The position numbers and the translations under genes were made by a program. This document shows positions 5,157 through 63,002 of a DNA stretch of 64,000 nucleotides, one piece after another (within the stretch, counting starts at the first letter, position 1; each line of letters begins with the position of its first letter). The DNA is from an uncultured Holophagales bacterium (GTDB lineage Bacteria; Acidobacteriota; Thermoanaerobaculia; Multivoradales; UBA5704), in the NCBI GenBank assembly GCA_963842525.1, contig CAWJGT010000004.1:192001-256000 (forward strand). Reading direction: 5' to 3'. The notes under the pieces are model-generated. The model did not search any database and was not told where the DNA came from. It saw nothing but the letters and a program-made list of their open reading frames with translations.

Positions 5157-5729
5157 TCAGTCCGTAAGTTGGCCCGCACCCTCGGGCACGAGCCAGTCGA
5201 GATCGTCGCGGTGGCTGACGAGGTGGGGCTTGGCGCGACAGTTTCTGGTGAAGATGGCCAGCTCGCTCCACCTCGAATAAGGCCCGCTCCACTCGGAAAA
5301 TCCCATCCTCCAGAGTGAGGCGCTTCGGCAGGCGACTCCCTGATCACCTTGCTGATGCCACTCCGAGGCCGCCCTACGCGTAAGGTCCTTCGGGACACCA
5401 TCAGGATAGGCGACTGCGAACCCTGCCGCCGTGATCCCTTCGACGGATACGACATCGACCACCTCGCCGGTCCAATCCACCTCCACGAGGCGCGGCCGGT
5501 AGGCAGGCAGGAGGTCTTCCATCTCGACGCCTGCGAACCGCAGGATGTCGCGTGTCACCGCCCGTGCGACGAGTTGGCTGCAGCAGCAGTAGAGAGCCGG
5601 AAACTCCAGCGAGTTCCAGCGATTGTCAGCCGCCGTTCGGCTGAAGGAGGCATCCAGGGGATCTTTCCAACCGGCCCGGACGACACGATAGAGGGGACGG
5701 TGGACGTGAGATATAAGGAGGCGGCTCAT
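5157..5729 (-). CDS. RES domain toxin
   Basis: LYRV, NRWN...ALYC, GVACRSA; overlaps stop of the upstream HTH gene (ATGA). Confidence 0.75.
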   Translation of the reverse strand: MSRLLISHVHRPLYRVVRAGWKDPLDASFSRTAADNRWNSLEFPALYCCCSQLVARAVTRDILRFAGVEMEDLLPAYRPRLVEVDWTGEVVDVVSVEGITAAGFAVAYPDGVPKDLTRRAASEWHQQGDQGVACRSASLWRMGFSEWSGPYSRWSELAIFTRNCRAKPHLVSHRDDLDWLVPEGAGQLTD

Positions 5730-6523
5730 CCCTGATAGGCGAGGGCTACCTCGTAGCGGTCCGCTGCCTCCGCGATCCGCCCTCGCAAGATCCAGTCGAG
5801 AGCGCTCTCGCCGGTGAAGAGGCCGGCTTTCCTCCGGATCCCAGAGGCGAGACGCTCCGGCTGAAAGATCTCCAGCAGCCGGCGCAGCCCGGCATCAGCC
5901 TGGACCAGATCGGCCATCCTTTCGGCGGGAATCTCATGGCTGCCCCGCTCCCAGCGCCGGACTGTTTCGCCGGAGGTGCCGAGGACACGGCCGAGGAGGT
6001 CGTAGCTCAGGTCGAGCTGTGCCATGAGGCGCCTCAGGATATCCCGGCCCCGAACATTCCTCTCGGAGTCGCGCAGAACCTCGAAGATTGCCGTGTTGAA
6101 GACGGACAGAAACTCGTGCTCGGTGGCCTGCTCGACAGGGAGGTCCGGGAAGGACGCCTCCAACTCCTCCGGCGTATCGATCATGGCGCAGGGAAGTCCT
6201 AGAGCTTCCGCCACCCGGGCCCAGGTGAGCAGGAGGAATCGCAAGGCCGCCTCGGGCTCGCCGTGGCGGAGGAAGCGCAGGGACGGGAAGCAGGCCTGGA
6301 GCGAGCTGTGGCGCACCAACGTGGCCAAATCACCCTCGAATCCCGCAAGCTCATTGAGATCGGCCAGGCACCGATCCAAGAGATGGACGATTTCCCGAAC
6401 GCTGCCGAGGTCCGGCGTATCCGGCCGCAGTCGTTTCGGAGACTGTGCGTCGATCCGTACGCTCAGGCTCTGCAGGGCACGTTCCAGGACAATGGGATGC
6501 GGCAAAGAATCACCATGCCTCAT
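5726..6523 (-). CDS. Xre/MbcA/ParS-type antitoxin with long N-terminal extension
   Basis: HTH LSYDLLGRVLGTSGETVRRWERG plus C-terminal LFTGESALDWILRG; start placed at ATG after CACAAT -10. Confidence 0.7.
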   Translation of the reverse strand: MRHGDSLPHPIVLERALQSLSVRIDAQSPKRLRPDTPDLGSVREIVHLLDRCLADLNELAGFEGDLATLVRHSSLQACFPSLRFLRHGEPEAALRFLLLTWARVAEALGLPCAMIDTPEELEASFPDLPVEQATEHEFLSVFNTAIFEVLRDSERNVRGRDILRRLMAQLDLSYDLLGRVLGTSGETVRRWERGSHEIPAERMADLVQADAGLRRLLEIFQPERLASGIRRKAGLFTGESALDWILRGRIAEAADRYEVALAYQG

Positions 6524-6553
6524 GCCTCTATTGTGCCACACTGTTGCCACACG

Positions 6554-7966
6554 TCAAGTCTCCCCGAGCGCTTCCCGGATGTCCTCCAGCGCCATCTCCA
6601 TGCGGTCGTGGTGGGTGCGGAAGGAGAGGACGCAGATCCGCAGGGCGAAACGGCCGCGGAGGAGGGTGCCGGTCAGCATGACCCTCTGGCGGTCGTTGAT
6701 GCGGTCGAGGAGCTTCCGGTTGAGACGGTTGAGCTCGTCGTCGCCGGCGTCCTCGCGGCCCGGGGGGACGTAGCGGAAGGCGAAGAGCGAGAGGTCGGGC
6801 TCGGCCAGGACCTCGATCCCTTCGATCCGCCGCAGCTCCTCCAGCGCCCAGGACGTCAGGTCGAGCTTCTCGTCCAGCGCCTCGCGGAAGGGGCCGATGC
6901 CGTGCATCTTCATAGGGAGCCAGACCCGCAGGCCGCGGTAGGGCCGGCTCAGCTCGGGGGACATCTCGCAGAAATCGACCGGGTTGTCCTGCATCGCCGG
7001 CATGTAGTCGGCGGCGGCGCTGTGGGCGCGCTTCAAGGCGGCGCCGTCCCGTACGAGGAGGGCGCCGGTGCCGTACGGGAGGAACAGGCTCTTGTGCGGG
7101 TCGAGGATCAGCGAATCGGCGAGCTCCATGCCCGCGAGGGCCTGCCGCCCGCGTTCCGTCATGCGGAAGAAGGCGCCATAGGCGCCGTCGACGTGGAACC
7201 AGAGGTTTTCGCGGTGGCAGATCGCGGCGAGCCCCGGCAGTGGATCGACCGCGCCGCTGTTGGTCGTCCCGGCGTTGCCCACCACCAGGAACGGGGTGAG
7301 CCTCTGCCGGCGGTCCTCCTCGATCATCGACTCCAGGGCGTCGAGGCGGATGCGGAAGCGCTCGTCCGTGGGCACCTCGCGGACGTTCCGCGGCGGGAAC
7401 CCGGCGAGGACGGCGCTCTTGGCGATCGAGTGATGGGTCTGGTCCGAAGCATAGAGGATGCCGCGGAGGAAGTCCTCGGGGAGGCGCTCCCGCCGGGCGG
7501 TGACCAGGGCGATGAGGCTGGAGACCGAGCCGCCGCTGGTCAGCAATCCCCTGGTCTCGGGCGGCATGCCGGCGATCTCGCGGAACCAGGAGAGGACGTT
7601 CGCCTCGAGCTGCACCAGGGCCGGCGCGGCGGCGAAGACGCCGGTGTAGCGGTTGATCGTATCGGCGATCAGGTCGGCCACGGCGGAGTGGAACAGCCCG
7701 CCGCCGGGGATGTAGGCGAGGTAGCCCGGACCGGCGGCGTTGAAGGAGCTCGGGGCGGCCTTGCGGAAAAGGAGGTCCAGCAGCTTTGGGTAGGGCGTTC
7801 CCTGCTCGGGAGGGAGGGGCTCCTCCAGGGACCGCGCCAGCTTCATGCCTCCCTTCGTGCGGGAGGCGGGTTGCTCCGGAAGGGTCTCGATGTGATGGAC
7901 GATCCGTTCCAGGGCTGCGAGCACGAGGCTCCGCATCTCGTCGGCAGTGGGCTCCAGGGGTGCCAT
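6554..7966 (-). CDS. PLP-dependent group II (aromatic amino acid-type) decarboxylase
   Basis: YLAYIPGGG, TSGGS, AGTTNSGAVD, HVDGAYG, LDPHKSLFLPY. Confidence 0.93.
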   Translation of the reverse strand: MAPLEPTADEMRSLVLAALERIVHHIETLPEQPASRTKGGMKLARSLEEPLPPEQGTPYPKLLDLLFRKAAPSSFNAAGPGYLAYIPGGGLFHSAVADLIADTINRYTGVFAAAPALVQLEANVLSWFREIAGMPPETRGLLTSGGSVSSLIALVTARRERLPEDFLRGILYASDQTHHSIAKSAVLAGFPPRNVREVPTDERFRIRLDALESMIEEDRRQRLTPFLVVGNAGTTNSGAVDPLPGLAAICHRENLWFHVDGAYGAFFRMTERGRQALAGMELADSLILDPHKSLFLPYGTGALLVRDGAALKRAHSAAADYMPAMQDNPVDFCEMSPELSRPYRGLRVWLPMKMHGIGPFREALDEKLDLTSWALEELRRIEGIEVLAEPDLSLFAFRYVPPGREDAGDDELNRLNRKLLDRINDRQRVMLTGTLLRGRFALRICVLSFRTHHDRMEMALEDIREALGET

Positions 7967-49286: not shown

Positions 49287-50543
49287 ATGAGCCACCCGAT
49301 TACCGAGGAGAGCCTGAGGCGCTTCGCTGCGAGGACCGCCTCTCCGGAGGAGGGCCGCACAATTGTGGCCCATCTTCTGAAGGGATGTTCGTCTTGTGCG
49401 AAGCGGCTGAGATCCCTCGAACGACCTGGTATACCGGATGGTGCTTACGATGCGATGTTCGCTCGATTGGAGAGAGCTTCTGCTTCTCACGGATCTACGA
49501 AGGTTCCGGGGGCCGCGGGGAATTCGAGAGAGCTGCTGGCCGAGTTGGATGCTCAACCTGAGGCTCGCCAAGAAATCCTGGTACGCAACAGCCGCCGGTA
49601 CTGGTCCCCTGAGCTCGCCGAGTTACTGTGCGAGCGCAGCTACTTTCGACGCTTCGAAGACCCGCGGAGGGTGCTGCATTGGGCTCGGCTGGCCGTGCTG
49701 ATCGGGGAGCATTTCGAAGAGCCGGGCTCCAGCAGAGAGGCACTCGCGGACGTGAGGGCACTCTGCTTCGCTCAATTGGGCACTGCGCTTCGGATTTCGG
49801 GTGATCTAGAGGCCGCTGATCAGTCCATGATGACCGCGCGAAATTGGATGCGTCGAGGGACTGGCAATGCAGAGCTGAGGGCCAAGATCTATGGGCACCT
49901 CGCGTCCTTACGGACTAATCAATTCCGTTGCAATGAAGCCGAGCATCTCTACGCTCAGGCTGCTGAGATCTGGCGGGATCTGGGCAAGCCGCACATGCTA
50001 GCTAAAATCCTGATAGGACAGGCGATCGCTGTTCTCTACCGAGGTGACCCGGATAGTGCCCTCTCGCTCCTCATGGAGGCAATGCCCAAAATCGACGGTT
50101 CCAATGACCCTCGTATGACGTTCGCTGCGTGTCACGCGGTGATTCGATGCCAGATCGAGCTCGGTCAAATAGAGGAGGCCTCGCTCAGATGGGTGGAGTT
50201 GAGGTCCCTTTACAGCAGGCTTAAAGATCCCATCCTGCACACCCGTGGGAAGTGGCTCGAAGGAAGGCTCATGATCGGACAAGGGATGATTTCCGCAGGC
50301 TTGAAACTCCTACAGGATGCGCGCGAGGAGCTGGCGCAGAAGGGACTTGAGTACGATGCTGCCCTCGTCGCCCTTGAAATCGCTGGCAGCTACATGGGAC
50401 TCGGCCGGTCGGAGGAAGTGCGGCGTCTTTTGGCCGAGATTCTCCCGGTTTTCAGGAACCGCAAAGTCGAACGCTCGGCACTCGCCTCGGTCCTCTTTCT
50501 TGGAAGAGTAGTGTCATGCGTTCCTTCAGCCTCTTCTCCCTGA
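49287..50543 (+). CDS. TPR protein with N-terminal zf-HC2-like zinc finger
   Basis: H...LRRF...VAHLLKGCSSC, TPR helices, WLEGRL, YDAALVALE; visibly lower GC. Confidence 0.75.
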   Translation: MSHPITEESLRRFAARTASPEEGRTIVAHLLKGCSSCAKRLRSLERPGIPDGAYDAMFARLERASASHGSTKVPGAAGNSRELLAELDAQPEARQEILVRNSRRYWSPELAELLCERSYFRRFEDPRRVLHWARLAVLIGEHFEEPGSSREALADVRALCFAQLGTALRISGDLEAADQSMMTARNWMRRGTGNAELRAKIYGHLASLRTNQFRCNEAEHLYAQAAEIWRDLGKPHMLAKILIGQAIAVLYRGDPDSALSLLMEAMPKIDGSNDPRMTFAACHAVIRCQIELGQIEEASLRWVELRSLYSRLKDPILHTRGKWLEGRLMIGQGMISAGLKLLQDAREELAQKGLEYDAALVALEIAGSYMGLGRSEEVRRLLAEILPVFRNRKVERSALASVLFLGRVVSCVPSASSP

Positions 50544-55801: not shown

Positions 55802-58786
55802 CTACGCCACCGGCTTCAAATTCATGATCGGCATTTCCGGCCGGGTCCCACCGGCCACGGAGCCTGCGCAGACTCCGTTCCGCCCGCGGGTCTTGGCCCG
55901 GTAGAGCGCGAGGTCGGCTGCCTGAATGAGGGTTTCCGGCCGCTGGCCCTGCTCCGGGATCACGGCGGCGACGCCGAAGCTTGCGGTGACATGGCCCCGG
56001 GGAGTCGCCTCGTGCGGCAGCGCGAGCGCCTCGATCCCCTGGCGGAGCTGCTCGGCGAGCTCCAGCGCGCCGGGGAGGTTGGTGTCGGGCAGGAGCACCG
56101 CGAACTCCTCGCCGCCATACCGTGCGACCAGATCCCCGGGCCGCTTGATGGCCTCGGCCAGATAGCGCGCCAGGGCCTTCAGGCACAGGTCCCCTTCGGT
56201 ATGGCCCCGGGTATCGTTCAACAGCTTGAAGTGGTCGAGGTCGAGGAGGACGAAGGCGATCGGCAGGCCCTGCCTCCGGGCGCGGCTCCATTCCTCCTCC
56301 AGCACCTGCTGCAGCCGGCGCCGGTTGGCGATGGCGGTGAGCTCATCCTGGTGCGACAGCTCCTGGAGCCGCGCGTTGGCCGCTTCGAGGTCGGTGGAGG
56401 TCCGGCGCAGCTCCTCGACCGTATGCCGCAGCTCTTCAGTCTGCGCGGTAACCCGGGCCTCCAGCCGCGCCGTCCGCAGGGCCAGGGTGCGGCTGCGGAG
56501 ACCGCTGAAGCCGATCATTCCAAGGATCAACAGGAGGGCCCAGAGCGCAATCGCCCAGGACGTCTGGTACCAGGGCGGCAGGACGCGGAACGGCCACGAG
56601 GCCGCTTCGCTCACCTCGCCCAGGGGGCCGACCGTACGCACGTGGAAGGTGTAGTCGTCCGGCGGCAGCCGCGTCAGCTCGGTGAAGGGCTCCGCCGTGG
56701 GCTCGCCCCAGCCGGCATCGAGTGGCTCCAGGCGGGTCTGATAGCGCAGGCCGGCGCGGAAGGAGACCGGTCCGACCTCGATCCGCAGGCGCCGCGCGTT
56801 CGACGGCAGCTCCGCCGCCGCAGGCGCGACACCCGGAGCGCCGCCGAACAGGACAGAGCCGCCACCCACGGTCATCCGCGACAGGAGCGGCGCCGGCAGG
56901 GTCTCTCCCTTGCCGCGGATGCTCCCGGCGAAGCGAACGAGCCCATTTTCCGCCGCCAGCCAGACTACGCCGTCCGGCTCGGCCAGGATTTCGCCGATGC
57001 TGCGCACCGGCACCTCGATCGTGCGCGCCTCCGTCTCCCAGCCGTCGCCCTGGCGGACCGCCACAGACGGGGGGCTGGTATTCAGCCAGAGGTTTCCCTC
57101 GGCGTCCAGGACAGCGAACGAGAATTCCTTGCCGAGAGCCGTAAAGTCCGGATCCTCGGCCAACGTTCCCTTCCGTTCGTCGAGACGAAACGTCTGCTTG
57201 CCGTTCGTCACGATGAGCCGGCTGCCGAGGCGCAGCACGTTCCTTGGCTCGGCCGGTTCGATCCGGCGCACCTGGGAACGCCCCCTCCGGGGCCATCCTG
57301 CCGGGATCTCCACGCGCGCCACGCCGTCGAGCGCGCTGCCCAGCCAGAGAACGCCGTCGTCCCTCTCGATGACCGTGCGCACGTCGCTCGGCGCGCCCTC
57401 GACCTGTCCTTCCACGCGCCACTCCCGGCCTTCGCGGCGCAGCGCGAAGAGCCCCTTGTCCAATCCTGCCCACACGCGCTCCGGATCCTTCCGGGAGCGC
57501 GCGAGGACGTACACCGTGCTCCCCAGGCCGGGCACCTCGACGGCGTTCCCGTCGCGAAGCCAAACGAGCCCATACGCCGTACCGACGAGGAGATCCTCTT
57601 CCATGGAGAGCAGGCTCCAGGCCGAGATCTTCACCTCCGGCACCGCGTGCATCCTGAGAGCCGGGCTCCCCGGAGTGGTGGTGAAGAGGCCGGCCGCGGT
57701 GGCGACCCAGAGCTCCCCCTGGTGCCGGGCCATCGAGTAGACGCTCCCCTGGAGCCCCAGACGCCGGTCGATGATCGACAGGCGCGAAGCGATTTCGATC
57801 CGTGCCAGCCCGTTGTTGAGAGCCAGCCAGAGTGCGCCTTCGCGGTCGATCACCGTGCCGTTCACAAAGTCGTCGGACAGCCCGGCCGACGAATCGATCA
57901 CCTGATCCACCTCGCCATCCGGCTTCAGGAGCAGGAGGCCGCCCAGGATCGACCCCATCGCCAATCGCCCGTCGGCCAGGCGGCTTCCCGCGAGAAGCTT
58001 TTTCTCCGCGGCCCATCGCGACGCCTCGGGGGCGAACGGCACGCTCCGTCCGTTCTCCAGGAGGAAGAGCCCTTCGCCGCGGACGGACACGAGCAGCCTC
58101 TCCGCGTCCGACGGGCCCGTCGGCAGGATCAGGTCCACGCGCCGGTCGTGATACTCCTCTCCGCCGGGCACCGGCTCGAGGCGGGACCCGGCCAGCCGGA
58201 AGATCCCGGCGCGCGTCCAGACATAGACCGACCTCCCGACGTCGAAGCTCATCGCGTAGGGCCGGTCGCCCGGGAACGTGGCCACCGTGGTAAACCGGGC
58301 CCCGTCCCAGAGCAGAAGCCACCGTGTCGTCATGAAGGCGAAGCCCTCGGGCGTGGGATTGATCCGCATCGCCTGGCCGAGCTCCCGCTGCTCCGGAGGG
58401 AGAAGGCCGACGAGCGACTTGTACCGGAGCGCTCCGTCCGGGCCGGGCGTGAGGAGCCCGACCTCGTCGACGCCGCCGACCGCCACCTGTCCTCCCGGAT
58501 TGCTGGCGATCGAGAAGCAGGTGCCTTTCTTCCCGACCGGGATCGTCCGCCACCAGGCGCCGTCGTAGACCAGGGCGCCGCCGGCGTTGGCCACATAGAG
58601 GATGCCTTGCGGATCGCGGGTGATGCCGTAGCTCTGCGTGTACGCGTCGGGAGGAGCGTACGTCTGGATCAGAGGGAATCCGCGCTCCGCGGTGGAGCGG
58701 GGAGCGGCCGCGGCCAGGGGGAGGCAGGCCAGCAGGAGCAGGCCGGCGAGAGAGCCGATGCAACGCGGACGGAAGCCAGGGCGCAT
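55802..58786 (-). CDS. Diguanylate cyclase with periplasmic beta-propeller/Y_Y_Y sensor
   Basis: Signal peptide, propeller repeats, VLPPWYQTSWA + TM, DLDHFKLLND, RPGDLVARYGGEEF. Confidence 0.93.
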   Translation of the reverse strand: MRPGFRPRCIGSLAGLLLLACLPLAAAAPRSTAERGFPLIQTYAPPDAYTQSYGITRDPQGILYVANAGGALVYDGAWWRTIPVGKKGTCFSIASNPGGQVAVGGVDEVGLLTPGPDGALRYKSLVGLLPPEQRELGQAMRINPTPEGFAFMTTRWLLLWDGARFTTVATFPGDRPYAMSFDVGRSVYVWTRAGIFRLAGSRLEPVPGGEEYHDRRVDLILPTGPSDAERLLVSVRGEGLFLLENGRSVPFAPEASRWAAEKKLLAGSRLADGRLAMGSILGGLLLLKPDGEVDQVIDSSAGLSDDFVNGTVIDREGALWLALNNGLARIEIASRLSIIDRRLGLQGSVYSMARHQGELWVATAAGLFTTTPGSPALRMHAVPEVKISAWSLLSMEEDLLVGTAYGLVWLRDGNAVEVPGLGSTVYVLARSRKDPERVWAGLDKGLFALRREGREWRVEGQVEGAPSDVRTVIERDDGVLWLGSALDGVARVEIPAGWPRRGRSQVRRIEPAEPRNVLRLGSRLIVTNGKQTFRLDERKGTLAEDPDFTALGKEFSFAVLDAEGNLWLNTSPPSVAVRQGDGWETEARTIEVPVRSIGEILAEPDGVVWLAAENGLVRFAGSIRGKGETLPAPLLSRMTVGGGSVLFGGAPGVAPAAAELPSNARRLRIEVGPVSFRAGLRYQTRLEPLDAGWGEPTAEPFTELTRLPPDDYTFHVRTVGPLGEVSEAASWPFRVLPPWYQTSWAIALWALLLILGMIGFSGLRSRTLALRTARLEARVTAQTEELRHTVEELRRTSTDLEAANARLQELSHQDELTAIANRRRLQQVLEEEWSRARRQGLPIAFVLLDLDHFKLLNDTRGHTEGDLCLKALARYLAEAIKRPGDLVARYGGEEFAVLLPDTNLPGALELAEQLRQGIEALALPHEATPRGHVTASFGVAAVIPEQGQRPETLIQAADLALYRAKTRGRNGVCAGSVAGGTRPEMPIMNLKPVA

Positions 58787-59054
58787 AGGAATCAGGACTC
58801 GAACCCGGAGTCTACTCTCGCTCTAGAGTGTCGGGGAAGGCGAGAACGTTTCGCGAGGCGTTAGAATCCCGCAGCCGTCCCTGCCTGGCGGCCATGCAAT
58901 GAGCCTCGAAGACGTCGACCTGGCCCTCCGTGAGGAGTTCCCCTTCCTGCACAGCGGCGATCCGACCCGTTGTCGAATCGCGAAACTTCGATTACGCTTC
59001 TCCGGGTCGGGAGGTCCCGGCTCGTAGAAGTATCTCGAACGCCCCGGTTCCAGA

Positions 59055-59083
59055 TTGGATGAAATGGTAGGGTACGCTAAACT
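59055..59083 (+). promoter_or_regulatory. Sigma70-type promoter, probably leaderless
   Basis: TTGGAT-N17-TAAACT, 6 nt before ATG 59090, no SD. Confidence 0.6.
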
Positions 59084-59089
59084 ATTGAT

Positions 59090-59581
59090 ATGACCATCGA
59101 AGACGAGGTACGCCGGGCTACCAAGCTGCTCGAGACCGTCATGCAGGCGGCCGGGCTCACCCGCAAGGATCTCGACCAGCGCCTTGGCGCCGGTCCAGGC
59201 TATATCAGCCAGGTCCTCACCGGCAGGATGGAGCTGAAGTTCCGCCACGTCCTGGCCATCCTTCGCGCTCTCGACGTAGATCCCGGTATCTTCTTCCAGA
59301 CCCTCTATCCCGACTCCCGCCCGGTCAGCGACCAGGCCGTGATGGAGGAGTTCCTGCGCCGGTTCCAGCGCCTCGGCTTCAATAGCAGCGGCCCGGTGCC
59401 GCCGTCTCCTCCGGCTCCCGCCGCGTCCTCGTCGCCTGTAAAGCCGACCGTCGACCCCGGGGAGCTCGAGCGCCTGGTCCGCAAGGCCGTGCGGGAGGCT
59501 CTGTCCGACGAGGATCTGCAGCAGGACAGGGGGGAGTCGAACGTGCCTGAAGGCGACAAGCCGAGACGAAATCGGGGCTGA
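59090..59581 (+). CDS. XRE-like HTH transcriptional regulator
   Basis: GLTRKDLDQRLGAGPGYISQVLTGRMELKFRHVLAILRALDV. Confidence 0.85.
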   Translation: MTIEDEVRRATKLLETVMQAAGLTRKDLDQRLGAGPGYISQVLTGRMELKFRHVLAILRALDVDPGIFFQTLYPDSRPVSDQAVMEEFLRRFQRLGFNSSGPVPPSPPAPAASSSPVKPTVDPGELERLVRKAVREALSDEDLQQDRGESNVPEGDKPRRNRG

Positions 59582-59619
59582 CGAGAGCTAGAGGCCCCAC
59601 GCGATGAGGAGTGCGGAGC

Positions 59620-60966
59620 CTACTTCCGCCGCGCGGGCTCGAGGCGCTCGAGCTCGGCGGCGACGGCTTGGAGCAGCGCTACAGTGGCCTGCTGCTTTTC
59701 GCAGGCCTCGCGCAGCATGAGAAGCGCGCCGATGGCCTCGCGCCGCATCTTGCGTGCCCGGAAGATCGCCACGGTCTGGTCGATCAGCTCCCGGATCTCG
59801 CAGGTCCGGTCCTGGCGCAGCCAAACCGCCGCGAGGTCGAGCGCGACGAGGGCGGCTTCGCAGGGGAGCTCGCCCCTCTCGAAGCCGGCCCGCACTTCGA
59901 GGAACGCCTCCTCGGCCCTAGCGTCGTCCCCCAGGGCCGCCGCGATCCGGCCTTCCACCCAGCGGGCCTTGAGCTGCTCGAAGCGCTCGCCGTACGCCGC
60001 ATAGAGCTCGCGGCTGAGGTCGATCAGCTTGCTTGCCTCGGCGAAGCGCGAGCCGTCGACGAGGAAGTTGATGAGGCTGTGCACGCCGACCAGGACGAGC
60101 CCCGGATCGCGCCGGGGATCGATCAGGCGCAACCCCTCGCCGATCAGGCGGATGGCCGCGTCGGCGTCCAGCGCGTAGCCGGCCGAAATACCCTTGCTGA
60201 TCAAGGTCCGTCCGGCCCAGTGCTCGTCGCCTTGTGCCAGGTAGATCGCATGGGTCCAGTCGAGGAGCCGAAAGGCTTCGTCGAAGCGGCGCTGGCCGGT
60301 GTAGACGGAGGCGCTGAGGTCCATGATGCGGGCGAGGAGCAGCGGGTCTCCCGTGCCCAGTCCGGCCCGCTCGAGGGCGCGGGCGAGGTCGGTCTCCGCA
60401 CCGGGCAGGTCGCCCGCCACGCGGCGGGTGTTGCCGAGCTCGGCCAGAGCGCGGGCCTGGAGGTCGACGATGGCCCCGGCCTCTTCGGCGGTCTCCGCGG
60501 TGAGGCGCTCCGCGACGGTCACCGCCAGCCGCGCCAGGAGCACGGCGCCCTCGGGGTCGTTGTGGCGCAGGCTCCGGCACTGCTCCAGGAACGTCTCGCA
60601 GCGCAGCCGGTCGCGCGCGCTCCGTGCGGCGGGGGAGAGGGGAGCCGGCGGTGGGACTTCCCGCGGCCGGGCCTGCTCGTGCCGCGCCTCGTCCCGCTCC
60701 TGGACACGGGCCGCTGCGAGCCGCCGGACGGCGGCGAAGGCCCGGAAGAGGGGAAAGTCGTACTCCGTGCCACTGCCGGCGGCAGGCTCGGGAAGAGTGC
60801 CACGGCCGAACACCACCCTCGCGAGGGGGGCCATCTGCTCCTTGCAGGCCGCGCAGCCGGCGAGCAGGTGGACGACGATGGGAACCGCCTCGCGGGGCGT
60901 CAGACCTCCCCGCAGAAAACGGTCCAGCGCCGCGGGGGTGGGGTGCTCACGGTCTCCTCCGGCCAT
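59620..60966 (-). CDS. TPR protein with N-terminal zf-HC2-like zinc finger
   Basis: HPTPAALDRF...VVHLLAGCAAC, ELGNTRRVAGDL, WVEGRI, EAALVALDLA; SD GGAGG; paralog of 49287-50543. Confidence 0.8.
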   Translation of the reverse strand: MAGGDREHPTPAALDRFLRGGLTPREAVPIVVHLLAGCAACKEQMAPLARVVFGRGTLPEPAAGSGTEYDFPLFRAFAAVRRLAAARVQERDEARHEQARPREVPPPAPLSPAARSARDRLRCETFLEQCRSLRHNDPEGAVLLARLAVTVAERLTAETAEEAGAIVDLQARALAELGNTRRVAGDLPGAETDLARALERAGLGTGDPLLLARIMDLSASVYTGQRRFDEAFRLLDWTHAIYLAQGDEHWAGRTLISKGISAGYALDADAAIRLIGEGLRLIDPRRDPGLVLVGVHSLINFLVDGSRFAEASKLIDLSRELYAAYGERFEQLKARWVEGRIAAALGDDARAEEAFLEVRAGFERGELPCEAALVALDLAAVWLRQDRTCEIRELIDQTVAIFRARKMRREAIGALLMLREACEKQQATVALLQAVAAELERLEPARRK

Positions 60967-61035
60967 CCCGATTCCCTCCTGAGCTTCAAATGAGACCGCC
61001 TCATTGTCGCACAGAACGTGGTGGACGCCGGAAGA

Positions 61036-61353
61036 TCAGCGCCGGCCGTTGGGATCGAGAGCCGGACCGTAGTCTCTGCCAGAAGCCTGAAGGGACTCCG
61101 GCTCTCCGACTCCATCATGGGAGACATCGGCTGTGGGCGCGGCGCTCACCTGGCTCTGCCCGAGCAGACCGCCCCCGCTCCAGATCTGCCCAATCCATTG
61201 CGAGAGCCCGGACAGCCATCCGATCTCGACGCTCTCGATGGCCGGCGAGGCCCCCTCGCCCTGCGGAGCGGCCGACGCCGGCATGCCCGTCAGGCAGAGC
61301 ACGGCGGCCAGGACGAAGGCGGGGGTCAGGGAGCGAAACGTCTTGTACCGCAT
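61036..61353 (-). CDS. Small secreted protein/peptide precursor ending DYGPALDPNGRR
   Basis: Strong SD GAGGAGG, Sec signal (ASA-A), Trp-rich amphipathic helix, flexible linker. Confidence 0.75.
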   Translation of the reverse strand: MRYKTFRSLTPAFVLAAVLCLTGMPASAAPQGEGASPAIESVEIGWLSGLSQWIGQIWSGGGLLGQSQVSAAPTADVSHDGVGEPESLQASGRDYGPALDPNGRR

Positions 61354-61589
61354 GGATCTCCTCCTCTCCGCGAGCCAACGGGAGCCTCCATGGAGCCCGT
61401 GCTCGCGGAAGTAAACGGATTATGGAGCTAGATTTCACTAGATTCTCAAGCATCCATCTGGAAATAACCTTTCGAAAGAAGAGTAGCATGTGGTGGCGCA
61501 CCCCAGACCTGGCGAGGAGAGGGGATCTGCGGCAAAAGATCTCGGGAGCCGCCCTCTCCAAGACGGACTCGGAGACGGCTTTCACCGCC

Positions 61590-63002
61590 TCAAGGTCGGC
61601 GACGCGCCGGTCCCCTGGGCACCAGCCGCCAGACGAACGCATCGCTCTTGCCCGCCGCCTTGACGGGCTCGGCCCCGGTCTCCGGCAGCGCGTCCGTCTG
61701 CCCCTTGAAGGCGCCGGCGACATAGGGCGTCTCGTCGGCCCCGAGCGCGACGGCCAGCGCCTCGAGGCCGTCCGACGCGCTCAGGCGGAGACTCCAGATC
61801 TCCTGTCCCTGCGGCGAGTACTCGACGGCGAAGGCGAAATCGTCCCTGCCGCCGAGATGGCCGGTGGCCACCACGGTCCCTTCCCGGTTGCCCGCCACCG
61901 CAACCCCCTGGTCGGACCCATTGCCTCCGAGCTGCTGGGCCCAGGCGAGGCGTCCTGTGCCCTCGAGCCGCATCACGAACGCGTCGCCCCCTCCCGCGGC
62001 GGCCCGGGAGAAGGAGCCCGGCCCGGAGTCGAAGTCGACCGTGCCCGCGAACCGGCCGGTCAGCGCGAGGCCGCCCGAGCCCGCGGCGGAAGCCGACCCG
62101 AGAGATTCCTCCTGCGGGCCTCCGATCCGGCCGGAGGAGACGAGCGTGCCGGCGGCGTCGAGCCGCAGCACGAAGATGTCCGACTTCCCCGCGCTCTGCA
62201 GCGCGAGGCTGCCTCCGCCAGGGCCGATCCCTGCTGTCTCCTCGAAGTTGCCGGCCACCCAGACCTCGCCGTTGCGGCCGGCCGCGACCCCGCGCGCGTC
62301 GTCGTCCTTGAACCCGCCGATCCGCCGTGCCCAGGTGAGCGCGCCGGCGGCATCGAAACGGGCGAGGAAGGCGTCGGTCTTCCCGGCGCTGTCGAACAGC
62401 TCCGTCGAGCCCTGGAAGGACCCCGCCACCCATGTCTCACCCTGGGATCCGGCGGCCACCCGCATTCCGGCGTCGCCGAGCTTCCCTCCCAGGCGGCGGG
62501 CCCAGGCGAGGTCCCCGTCCGGCGTCAGGCGGAGGAGGAAGGCGTCGGAGCTGCCGGCGCTCGTGAGCTCGGTGCGGCCCGGGCCCGGGTCGAAGTCCAC
62601 CGTCCCGAAGAAGGCCCCGGTGGCCACGACGCTCCCCGTGCTGTCGACCGCGATGGCGCGCCCCTCGTCCGCACCGGGCCCGCCGAAGGCCCGCGCCCAG
62701 AGGACCTGCCCCTGGCGGTCGAGCTTCGCCACGAAGACGTCCGTCAGCCCGGACCCCGCCAGGGGGATCGTGCCGAAGGCGGTGCTCCCCTGGAAGTGGC
62801 CGGTCACATAGGAGCTGCCCTGGCCGTCCACCGCGATCCCCAGGGCAGTCTCACGATCGGGGCCGCCGAGCGCGCGCGGCCAGGCGCTCACGGGACCGCC
62901 GGCGGTATCTGCAGCAGACAGCGAGGCAGACCCCGCGAGATGCAGGCCGAGGAGCAGGACGATCCCGCCAGTGGTCCATTTTCTGCTTGAAGCTGCGGGC
63001 AT
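61590..63002 (-). CDS. SBBP beta-propeller repeat protein, secreted
   Basis: Repeats GIAVDGQGSSYVTGHFQG, DVFVAKLD..G..LWAR.FGG, GTVDFDPGPG. Confidence 0.85.
   Translation of the reverse strand: MPAASSRKWTTGGIVLLLGLHLAGSASLSAADTAGGPVSAWPRALGGPDRETALGIAVDGQGSSYVTGHFQGSTAFGTIPLAGSGLTDVFVAKLDRQGQVLWARAFGGPGADEGRAIAVDSTGSVVATGAFFGTVDFDPGPGRTELTSAGSSDAFLLRLTPDGDLAWARRLGGKLGDAGMRVAAGSQGETWVAGSFQGSTELFDSAGKTDAFLARFDAAGALTWARRIGGFKDDDARGVAAGRNGEVWVAGNFEETAGIGPGGGSLALQSAGKSDIFVLRLDAAGTLVSSGRIGGPQEESLGSASAAGSGGLALTGRFAGTVDFDSGPGSFSRAAAGGGDAFVMRLEGTGRLAWAQQLGGNGSDQGVAVAGNREGTVVATGHLGGRDDFAFAVEYSPQGQEIWSLRLSASDGLEALAVALGADETPYVAGAFKGQTDALPETGAEPVKAAGKSDAFVWRLVPRGPARRRP

Follow-up and report, generated by a model that had tools for sequence, protein, structure and literature searches.

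The DNA analysed here, hereafter called the window, is a stretch of 64,000 nucleotides (C4:192001-256000; 68% GC) from the 9.95-Mb, 34-contig genome of an uncultured Holophagales bacterium, and the subject of this work is a locus of three genes within it (Table 1). One gene encodes a small exported peptide with a DPNG motif, another a cytoplasmic protein that joins an N-terminal finger to a sensor domain built of tetratricopeptide repeats (TPRs), and the third a regulator of the XRE family. We judge the chances to be about even that this locus is one unit of an independently evolved and greatly expanded peptide-sensing system of the RRNPP kind, operating in a diderm bacterium. We favor this reading because peptide and receptor genes are linked in a nearly obligate manner and are duplicated as a pair, because a sensor of a peptide-binding type is joined to three unrelated output modules, because a conserved decamer is found C-terminally and in multiple copies in peptides whose remaining sequence diverges fast, and because no genes for a maturase, an exporter or an immunity function lie nearby.

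Peptide signals that are read by cytoplasmic TPR receptors have been treated as a hallmark of the Firmicutes and of their phages. The RRNPP_detector survey covered complete genomes of Firmicutes only, and its text describes Proteobacteria and Actinobacteria as users of small molecules (PMC10075063). In the full-text literature on peptide signaling, RRNPP systems and Acidobacteriota, we found no published description of pairs of DPNG peptides and TPR proteins.

An inspection of the open reading frames (ORFs) of the window recovered the three genes where the first-pass annotation of this DNA had placed them. Both the 69-bp gap between the stop codon of the peptide gene and the start of the TPR gene on the same strand, and the convergence of the TPR and XRE genes, whose stop codons are 38 bp apart, were thereby confirmed. 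The G+C content at third codon positions is 0.81 in the peptide gene, 0.89 in the TPR gene and 0.83 in the XRE gene; across the first 60 codons of the peptide gene it is at least 0.90. The Shine-Dalgarno sequence of the peptide gene, GGAGAGGAGG, ends 4 nt ahead of its ATG.

The adjacency of a peptide gene and a TPR gene recurs throughout the genome. A tblastn search with the window TPR protein yielded 110 matches at E < 0.001, and 24 of them, the finger-type paralogs, include the N-terminal motif HP...FL.G.L......RHLL.GC..C. Fourteen of these 24 are preceded, 37-195 bp upstream and on the same strand, by a small DPNG ORF that mostly possesses an AGGAGG-type Shine-Dalgarno sequence; the encoded products have a signal-like N-terminus, a Trp-rich stretch and one to four decamers ending in (I/L/M)DP(N/D)G. 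When the six-frame translation was scanned independently of the receptors, the pattern [ILMV]DP[ND]G occurred 147 times, with 42 ORFs carrying it not more than 12 residues from the stop, and 38 of these 42 start in a signal-like manner. A TPR-family ORF, identified by a profile of the receptor family, lies within 800 bp of 40 of the 42 motif ORFs, whereas 2000 random placements gave 1.8 on average and never more than 7. The adjacency is real and far beyond chance. The first-pass annotation had put forward, unverified, that DPNG-ending peptides recur beside such TPR genes in Thermoanaerobaculia; the 40 of 42 ORFs in this genome bear this out, as does the finding that the best peptide match in each of 30 genomes of the order has a receptor-family ORF within 1500 bp in all 30 cases.

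Within the genus, XRE and receptor genes occur together in four of the five other genomes, with the receptor genes at 68-72% and the XRE gene at 82% nucleotide identity. The peptide gene could be read in three of these four loci, the fourth being a stretch that ended short. Two peptide orthologs from metagenomes reside on contigs that are equal in size to contigs carrying receptor orthologs (13191 and 9061). Of the 41 related genomes, 38 were matched by a receptor profile, among them all 24 of the same family, often with at least about 41 matches per genome; in a phylum-wide sample evaluated at E ≤1e-50, with eight candidates scored per genome, it matched 4 of 201 genomes, all from the same order. 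The corresponding peptide profile matched 34 of the 41 related genomes and gave 64 matches in the genome studied here and 30-53 in genomes of the same genus. Both families are present in 33 of the 41 genomes, the receptor alone in five, the peptide alone in one (a single weak match) and neither in two; since related genomes are not independent of each other, we use this co-occurrence as a description and not as a test. Collectively, the linkage and the motif GxxxDP[ND]G are kept across paralogs, orthologs and at least 20 genera, a conservation that the first-pass annotation had named among the checks on its proposal. Its suggestion of a family expansion, made from the second receptor paralog in the window, is supported, and the receptor-profile matches in this genome and its relatives reveal an expansion that is massive.

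Database searches with the single TPR protein gave 210 homologs at E ≤0.001 that are titled "hypothetical" or "TPR repeat protein", with Thermoanaerobaculia named in these titles, and a search for related loci with the same protein gave only a weak C-terminal match in a metagenome-assembled genome of the Bryobacteraceae. No gene for a modification enzyme or maturase, a protease, a dedicated or ABC exporter, or an immunity-like function is recurrent near the 42 motif loci. Three genes for OppA-type proteins (SBP_bac_5) are present in the genome. Two of them (C9:403765-404823 and C1:375359-376348) are found within about 4 kb of receptor-family genes, and one of the two is located 3.3 kb from the peptide-receptor pair at C9:408120-409882; given about 170 family ORFs in 10 Mb, this proximity may be due to chance.

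The window peptide consists of a signal-like start, the Trp-rich stretch IGWLSGLSQWIGQIW, a variable stretch and the C-terminus DYGPALDPNGRR. A rule-based reading of its N-terminus predicts a Sec signal peptide, with the K/R-containing n-region MRYKTFR, an h-region with a mean Kyte-Doolittle hydropathy of 3.05 and the cleavage site ASA/AP at residue 28. According to the first-pass annotation, the protein terminates in DYGPALDPNG; this decamer is indeed present, although it does not form the end of the ORF, as two Arg residues follow the DPNG sequence. In four orthologs (60-64% identity), signal peptide, Trp stretch and the sequence D(F/Y)G(P/S)ALDPNG are conserved, while the middle is variable. 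Among the five orthologous sequences, G45, Q52, W53, G55, Q56 and W58 of the Trp stretch are invariant, as are D94, G96 and A98-G103 of the decamer region. Beyond these, the peptides at the genus-level orthologous loci have kept little besides the Trp stretch and the ends ...GAAIDPNGDN, ...GCAIDPNGGGSY and ...GAFDPNG, so that within the genus the peptides diverge faster than the receptors.

Neither a Pfam nor an NCBIfam family was found for the window peptide, no NCBIfam model matched any of 14 family peptides, and tblastn with the window peptide detected no paralog at E < 0.1 in the genome. Because tblastn is blind among these peptides, the family becomes visible only by motif and profile. 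Position statistics on 72 copies in 38 peptides define the family unit as [DE]-x-[GR]-x-x-[ILM]-D-P-[ND]-G. The 38 peptides carry one copy (13 peptides), two copies (17), three copies (7) or four copies (1) of this unit, and in 19 of them the last Gly of the final unit is the end of the ORF. Features of a Sec signal are present by the same rules in 35-37 of the 38, and a W-x2-3-hydrophobic pattern comparable to the Trp stretch of the window peptide is found in 29, with LWEWIGSLW, VWSWFVELW, IWEWLTAVLAW and similar sequences in the paralogs. In a subset of the family, the motif is enclosed in a Cys-Cys loop of the form C-x-(I/L/M)-DPNG-x-C, often with a C(L/V)PGS end. A profile of 14 peptides retrieved 2918 proteins at E ≤0.001 and 220 at E ≤1e-10 from 1.84 billion cluster representatives; almost all of the 150 best matches listed are 80-140 amino acids long, and the matches in the ESM Atlas are unnamed acidobacterial clusters only. 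Much longer proteins with the motif exist as well. P0126, P0128, P0131 and P0213 are secreted proteins of 640-780 amino acids without a Pfam family, in which dozens of near-tandem x-G-x-x-(I/L/M)-DPNG-(R/K) units are followed by DEWDGEV(V/I/L)KR repeats, and when 401 genomes of the phylum were searched with P0126, no more than two matches, both weak, came up; its cluster supplied no name either. Either these are multi-copy peptide precursors with basic cleavage sites or the unit is a structural repeat of nine residues.

The window TPR protein has no transmembrane-like segment, and the same is true for 45 of the 47 receptors of the family that could be classified. Pfam detects TPR_12 (PF13424) in it with 31.6 bits against a gathering threshold of 30.1, and NCBIfam names no family for it, with some paralogs giving weak matches to the TPR regions of NsdA or AfsR. 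An AlphaFold2 model built from 74 sequences (mean pLDDT 89.3) predicts three short helices round the finger, a disordered segment (residues 54-70), a long helix (residues 72-98) and a superhelix of paired helices (residues 112-442). A Foldseek search with this model ranked TPR domains of the LGN/Pins proteins first (E about 3e-7), and Rap and NprR are among the best structural neighbors, with RapJ in complex with a Phr peptide at rank 26. As modeled, the TPR superhelix is of the type that wraps around extended peptides, and its fold is of a peptide-binding kind. Several paralogs are split over two reading frames, as frameshifted genes or pseudogenes (L006, C1:241323-242646; L017, C25:62668-63991; L009:5817-7256), and stand-alone finger ORFs exist (L007, 98 amino acids); both kinds reflect either a rapid turnover of the family or errors of the assembly.

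The same sensor domain is joined to different N-terminal modules. A profile-profile comparison identified residues 89-448 of the finger-type proteins and residues 129-490 of a second class, with an N-terminal helix-turn-helix (HTH), as one and the same domain (probability 100%, E 4.4e-71, 361 columns). Of 75 large family ORFs in the genome, 27 are of the finger type, 20 are of the XRE-HTH type as assigned with an iterated profile, and 28 are unclassified, many of the latter being split or frameshifted. The HTH-type receptors are 480-510 amino acids long and lie on the strand opposite to the peptides with Cys loops. Pfam finds HTH_3 or HTH_31 at the N-terminus of all five HTH-type proteins tested from this genome; in other genomes, the iterated profile finds an HTH in eight of nine extended loci, and Pfam confirms five of these eight at E ≤1e-5. 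This HTH subtype is found in 61 ORFs: in 27 it is joined to the sensor in one protein, 16 have a sensor gene no more than 1 kb away, and the other 18 are located elsewhere. There are at least 467 homologs of the HTH-type receptors at E ≤1e-20, and where these are named they are XRE-family regulators. A third kind of output is represented by the homolog P0347, in which the TPR sensor is joined to a GGDEF diguanylate cyclase domain. One sensor with interchangeable outputs looks like a ligand-binding domain, and an HTH-TPR protein beside a small secreted ORF has the layout of an RRNPP system.

The finger of the window protein had been noted in the first-pass annotation as a zinc finger without any proposal of an anti-sigma output. 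Its putative zinc ligands are conserved (H8, C38 and C41 are invariant and H33 is at least 90% conserved among 21 paralogs), and we refine the assignment as follows. The spacing H33-x4-C38-x2-C41 contains one residue more than the canonical H-x3-C-x2-C, and the Pfam model zf-HC2 gave matches in only four of nine N-termini, all of them below its cut-off (E 0.017-0.077; E 0.027 with 15 bits against 22.2). With a profile of 24 N-termini, the best sequence match in the PDB was the anti-sigma factor ChrR (E 0.0035), with residues 3-86 of the query aligned to residues 4-85 of ChrR, and the second was DdvA (E 0.024); these scores are marginal and the extent of the matches is consistent. Since ChrR and DdvA are the top PDB matches and since genes for extracytoplasmic function (ECF) sigma factors lie upstream of many paralogs, the finger is best read, from its sequence, as a domain like those of the zinc-binding anti-sigma (ZAS) factors.

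The genome encodes 42 proteins with a Sigma70_r2 region, which are candidate ECF sigma factors. Two paralogs in the genome follow ECF sigma genes with Sigma70_r2 and r4 regions at distances of 19 bp and of a few bases. Fourteen loci have an ECF sigma gene directly upstream of a full-length finger-type TPR gene, and 13 of them belong to L023-L052, the 30 loci with the best receptor matches in relatives. Of 15 sigma-linked loci that were inspected, at least 6 have, ahead of the sigma gene, a small ORF whose exported product contains a Trp stretch and ends in a DPNG-like sequence (IDPNG, LDPIGG, LDPTGG, IDGNGG or NPDGRP), resulting in the gene order peptide, sigma factor, anti-sigma/TPR protein (L024, L043 and L051 are examples). 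No sigma gene lies directly upstream of the TPR gene in the window; its finger might have as partner the conserved XRE neighbor or a sigma factor whose gene lies at another place. Several arrangements of these genes deserve mention in their own right. ECF sigma and finger-type TPR genes occur in tandem twice at L009:2759-4820 and 5311-7256, and a sigma gene is directly upstream of the finger-type TPR gene also in the relatives' loci L024, L043, L046, L048, L042 and L050. At C9:424154-433916 (L012-L015, L023), five finger-type paralogs form a tandem array with no DPNG genes between them, and the top-scoring receptor loci in relatives resemble this peptide-less or sigma-linked subfamily.

The XRE protein of the window matches the Pfam models HTH_31 (E 8.7e-8, 32.8 bits against 27) and HTH_3 (E 2.2e-7, 31.2 bits against 23), and XRE genes of its type are convergent to six peptide-receptor pairs in the genome. 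The motif EEFLRRFQRLGF in its C-terminal tail recurs in paralogous XRE proteins that adjoin other receptors and is a possible docking site. The HTH also matches the corresponding part of the AimR model of NCBIfam far below threshold (E 6.4e-4, 18.9 bits against a cut-off of 70), a similarity that concerns the HTH only.

The first-pass annotation had envisaged an RRNPP-analogous system in a diderm lineage, with the finger or the XRE protein as output. Linkage, fold, the paralogs with a fused XRE domain and the retention of the XRE neighbor uphold the genetic side of this proposal. What the analysis establishes is how the genes are built and linked, how their domains are related and which fold the receptor model takes; export, processing, re-import, binding and output switching are inferred. 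The DPNG pre-peptide would be exported and trimmed to one or more peptides ending in DPNG that accumulate outside the cell, and such a peptide might re-enter the cell, for example through an Opp-type permease, and bind to the concave face of its cognate TPR domain. In this interaction, the invariant DPNG could anchor the peptide, and the specificity of each pair could come from the variable residues that precede this core. Binding would then alter the action of the N-terminal output module. In the window protein, the ZAS-like domain would retain or set free a transcription factor, which might be an ECF sigma factor from another locus or the product of the convergent XRE gene; in paralogs, the sensor is fused directly to a DNA-binding domain of the XRE type, and one homolog has a GGDEF domain in this place. 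An autoinducing loop would arise if the operon were under its own control.

This scheme parallels that of the RRNPP systems (Rap-Phr, NprR-NprX, PlcR-PapR, Rgg-SHP, PrgX, AimR-AimP) in that a small ORF with a secretion signal adjoins the gene for a soluble cytoplasmic TPR receptor, the conserved peptide motif is C-terminal and at times repeated, a dedicated exporter or maturase gene is missing from the neighborhood, many paralogous pairs are present per genome, the HTH-type paralogs have the XRE-HTH plus TPR architecture, and the TPR fold is near to those of Rap and NprR. It departs from them in its diderm acidobacterial host and in the window receptor, which possesses an anti-sigma-like finger and no HTH, whereas PlcR, NprR, Rgg, PrgX and AimR contain an HTH and Rap lacks one. 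Moreover, all DPNG peptides share one core and a Trp-rich pro-region, and many of their motifs reside within Cys-Cys loops. The comparison is one of genes, linkage and fold, and peptide binding and import in the acidobacterial system are presumed. The logic is that of RRNPP systems, whereas the proteins are new, as are the type of host envelope, the core common to the peptides and an output of the anti-sigma kind.

The window receptor also resembles ZAS anti-sigma factors such as ChrR, RsrA and DdvA of Myxococcus. About 84 residues of its His/Cys region can be aligned with the ChrR domain, an ECF sigma gene stands directly upstream in many paralogs and relatives, and its sensor forms a domain of its own at the C-terminus of a soluble protein. 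It differs from these factors in the spacing H-x4-C-x2-C, in a first ligand that is His and not Cys, in the sub-threshold zf-HC2 match, in a sensor that is a TPR superhelix of 330 residues, and in a neighboring gene that encodes a convergent XRE protein and not a sigma factor. The LGN/Pins proteins of animals are eukaryotic scaffold proteins with 14-18% identity to the window protein, and the resemblance is one of fold only. The TPR regulators of actinomycetes and MalT (NsdA, the C-terminal TPRs of AfsR, domain III of MalT) provide no NCBIfam match to the window protein; regulators of the NsdA, AfsR and MalT types are not known to be paired with genes for exported peptides.

Several observations weigh against an RRNPP-like system. 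Ten of the 24 finger-type paralogs have no peptide gene upstream; the second paralog in the window is one of them, with no DPNG motif ORF within 900 bp upstream of the gene at 49287-50543. The covariation of peptides and receptors that the first-pass annotation had suggested looking for did not materialize: a Mantel test on receptor and peptide distances for 12 pairs gave r 0.41, and r -0.07 when one recent duplicate was left out, so that there is no general covariation signal. All paralogs have the identical DPNG core, a difficulty for a model with dozens of private channels unless the few variable flanking positions suffice, and the conserved Trp-rich stretch is left unexplained and is without a counterpart in the pro-peptides of RRNPP systems. 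Cys-Cys loops round many of the motifs would be reduced in the cytoplasm, and re-entry of a peptide has to proceed across the outer membrane as well, with only three OppA-like genes available for at least 40 peptides. In addition, no model for Rap, NprR, PlcR, Rgg or AimR is among the Pfam and NCBIfam matches of the receptor, no RRNPP chain is among the best 60 PDB sequence matches of the HTH-type profile, and there is no match to the ECF sigma model PF04542 on the 270-kb contig from which the window was taken.

The main rival explanation takes the loci as pairs of a regulator and its target, in which the TPR proteins sense something else and control a neighboring exported protein that never meets the TPR domain. 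The small protein would then be a periplasmic or extracellular effector, for instance a protein of the surface or matrix that is rich in turns or binds calcium, or a Trp-rich peptide that acts on membranes. Adjacency alone fits this explanation equally well, the Cys-Cys loops point to a folded extracytoplasmic product, and the invariant DPNG and the Trp stretch resemble modules of a mature protein more than a pro-region that is discarded; the tandem DPNG units of P0126, P0128, P0131 and P0213 suggest that the unit can be a structural repeat, and covariation is absent beyond recent duplicates. Left unexplained by it are the presence of a separate sensor paralog for each small gene, dozens of times per genome and with three kinds of output, the duplication and retention of the pair as a unit, and the peptide-wrapping form of the TPR sensor, and no other gene that might be related to a ligand is recurrent nearby. 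We hold it to be unlikely, while taking it seriously.

The TPR domain might instead bind the pre-peptide before it is exported, so that export frees or engages the output module and the system reports the export capacity or the state of the membrane and not the cell density. This would resemble type III secretion, in which substrates are bound by class II chaperones of the TPR type. A coupling of this kind would make re-import across two membranes unnecessary, would use a receptor and a pre-peptide that are made in one compartment and often from one operon, could assign the Trp-rich stretch a role as cytoplasmic docking site, and would suit an anti-sigma output in stress sensing. Sec substrates are normally targeted fast, however, and we know of no such mechanism for Sec signal peptides; multi-copy C-terminal decamers and Cys loops are hard to explain by it, and it offers no reason for dozens of parallel copies. 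We deem it improbable. That the peptide is the precursor of a modified natural product or a bacteriocin, with the TPR protein as recognition, scaffold or immunity factor, seems highly improbable to us. Its short ORF, repeated core-like units and Cys residues do recall multi-core precursor peptides, yet a maturase, protease, ABC exporter or immunity gene is not recurrent around the 42 loci, the leader is a signal of the Sec type and not that of a ribosomally synthesized and post-translationally modified peptide, and the partner proteins carry DNA-binding, anti-sigma or GGDEF modules and are therefore regulators.

If the RRNPP-like reading is correct, a non-homologous and expanded counterpart in the Acidobacteriota would mean that the design of a peptide signal and a cytoplasmic TPR receptor has more than one origin and also functions where two membranes have to be passed. 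A self-made peptide would then be a new class of input for ECF sigma/anti-sigma signaling, the social behavior of an abundant and barely cultured lineage would become accessible, and the many natural receptor-peptide pairs would be candidates for orthogonal signaling parts. In its most far-reaching form, to which we extend slightly less than even confidence, the proposal is that of a private peptide language in one order of the Thermoanaerobaculia. Dozens of Sec-exported and often multi-copy DPNG precursors, each with its own TPR receptor, would act through a fused XRE domain, through a ZAS anti-sigma domain with an ECF sigma factor or an XRE protein as partner, or through GGDEF; this would be the first RRNPP-like network for quorum sensing or kin discrimination in diderms, independent of that in the Firmicutes, and the first case of an anti-sigma factor switched by a self-made secreted peptide.

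Table 1. Features of the peptide-receptor locus and of the second receptor paralog (coordinates refer to the window)
Feature	Position	Strand	Basis
Exported DPNG pre-peptide gene, 105 aa	61036-61353	-	ORF and sequence
Shine-Dalgarno sequence and conserved 5' leader with predicted long hairpin	61358-61411	-	Ortholog conservation, folding
Predicted Sec signal peptide, residues 1-28, cleavage after ASA	61270-61353	-	Rule-based reading
Trp-rich amphipathic stretch IGWLSGLSQWIGQIW, residues 44-58	61180-61224	-	Ortholog conservation
C-terminal decamer DYGPALDPNG (one unit copy), followed by RR and stop	61045-61074	-	Ortholog conservation, 72-copy statistics
Gene for ZAS-like finger and TPR sensor, 448 aa, cytoplasmic	59620-60966	-	ORF, Pfam, AlphaFold2 model
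Anti-sigma-like domain, residues 3-86	60709-60960	-	Ligand conservation, profile match
Putative zinc ligands H8, H33, C38, C41	60844-60945	-	Conservation
Sensor domain (pre-TPR helix and TPR superhelix), residues 89-448	59623-60702	-	Common to HTH-type paralogs
XRE-family gene, 163 aa, HTH at residues 14-66, then 95-aa tail	59090-59581	+	Pfam
Second finger-TPR paralog, 418 aa	49287-50543	+	tblastn

The second finger-TPR paralog in the window shares 28.6% identity with the window TPR protein over 416 amino acids (tblastn) and has the N-terminus MSHP...HLLKGCSSC. Beside the locus, the gene at 55802-58786 (- strand) encodes a 994-amino-acid protein with Reg_prop/Y_Y_Y and GGDEF regions and a signal-like start, and the gene at 61590-63002 (- strand) encodes a 470-amino-acid protein with SBBP beta-propeller repeats, 237 bp separating its end from the peptide gene that follows on this strand; the two flanking genes do not recur at the paralogous loci. 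Contigs of an RNA library (X2) cover the pieces 59806-60104, 60367-60559 and 60606-60866 of the TPR gene at roughly 93-97% identity, and no contig of this library falls on the peptide gene or on the XRE gene. We draw no conclusion on expression from these contigs, because they stem from a relative and RNA libraries can hold DNA.

Scans of the region 58800-61800 with Rfam and for promoters and terminators gave no match. The leader of the peptide gene is conserved in four genus-level orthologous loci, with the core CCATGGAGGCTCCC, and it is predicted to fold into a long hairpin (-33.6 kcal/mol for 75 nt) with the apical loop AUGGA and a 3' arm that adjoins the Shine-Dalgarno sequence. Short hairpins with a GC stem and an A[TA][TG] loop, a motif that was defined after the data had been seen, are present in 11 of the 38 family leaders of this genome and in 4 of 23 from relatives; among 864 control leaders, 21 have one. 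They are positioned 30-45 nt 5' of the start codon (CGGCC-ATGGA-GGCCG is an example), and their stems vary among paralogs while the loop is constant. The hairpin could be either an RNA element or a palindromic operator that is specific for each paralog.

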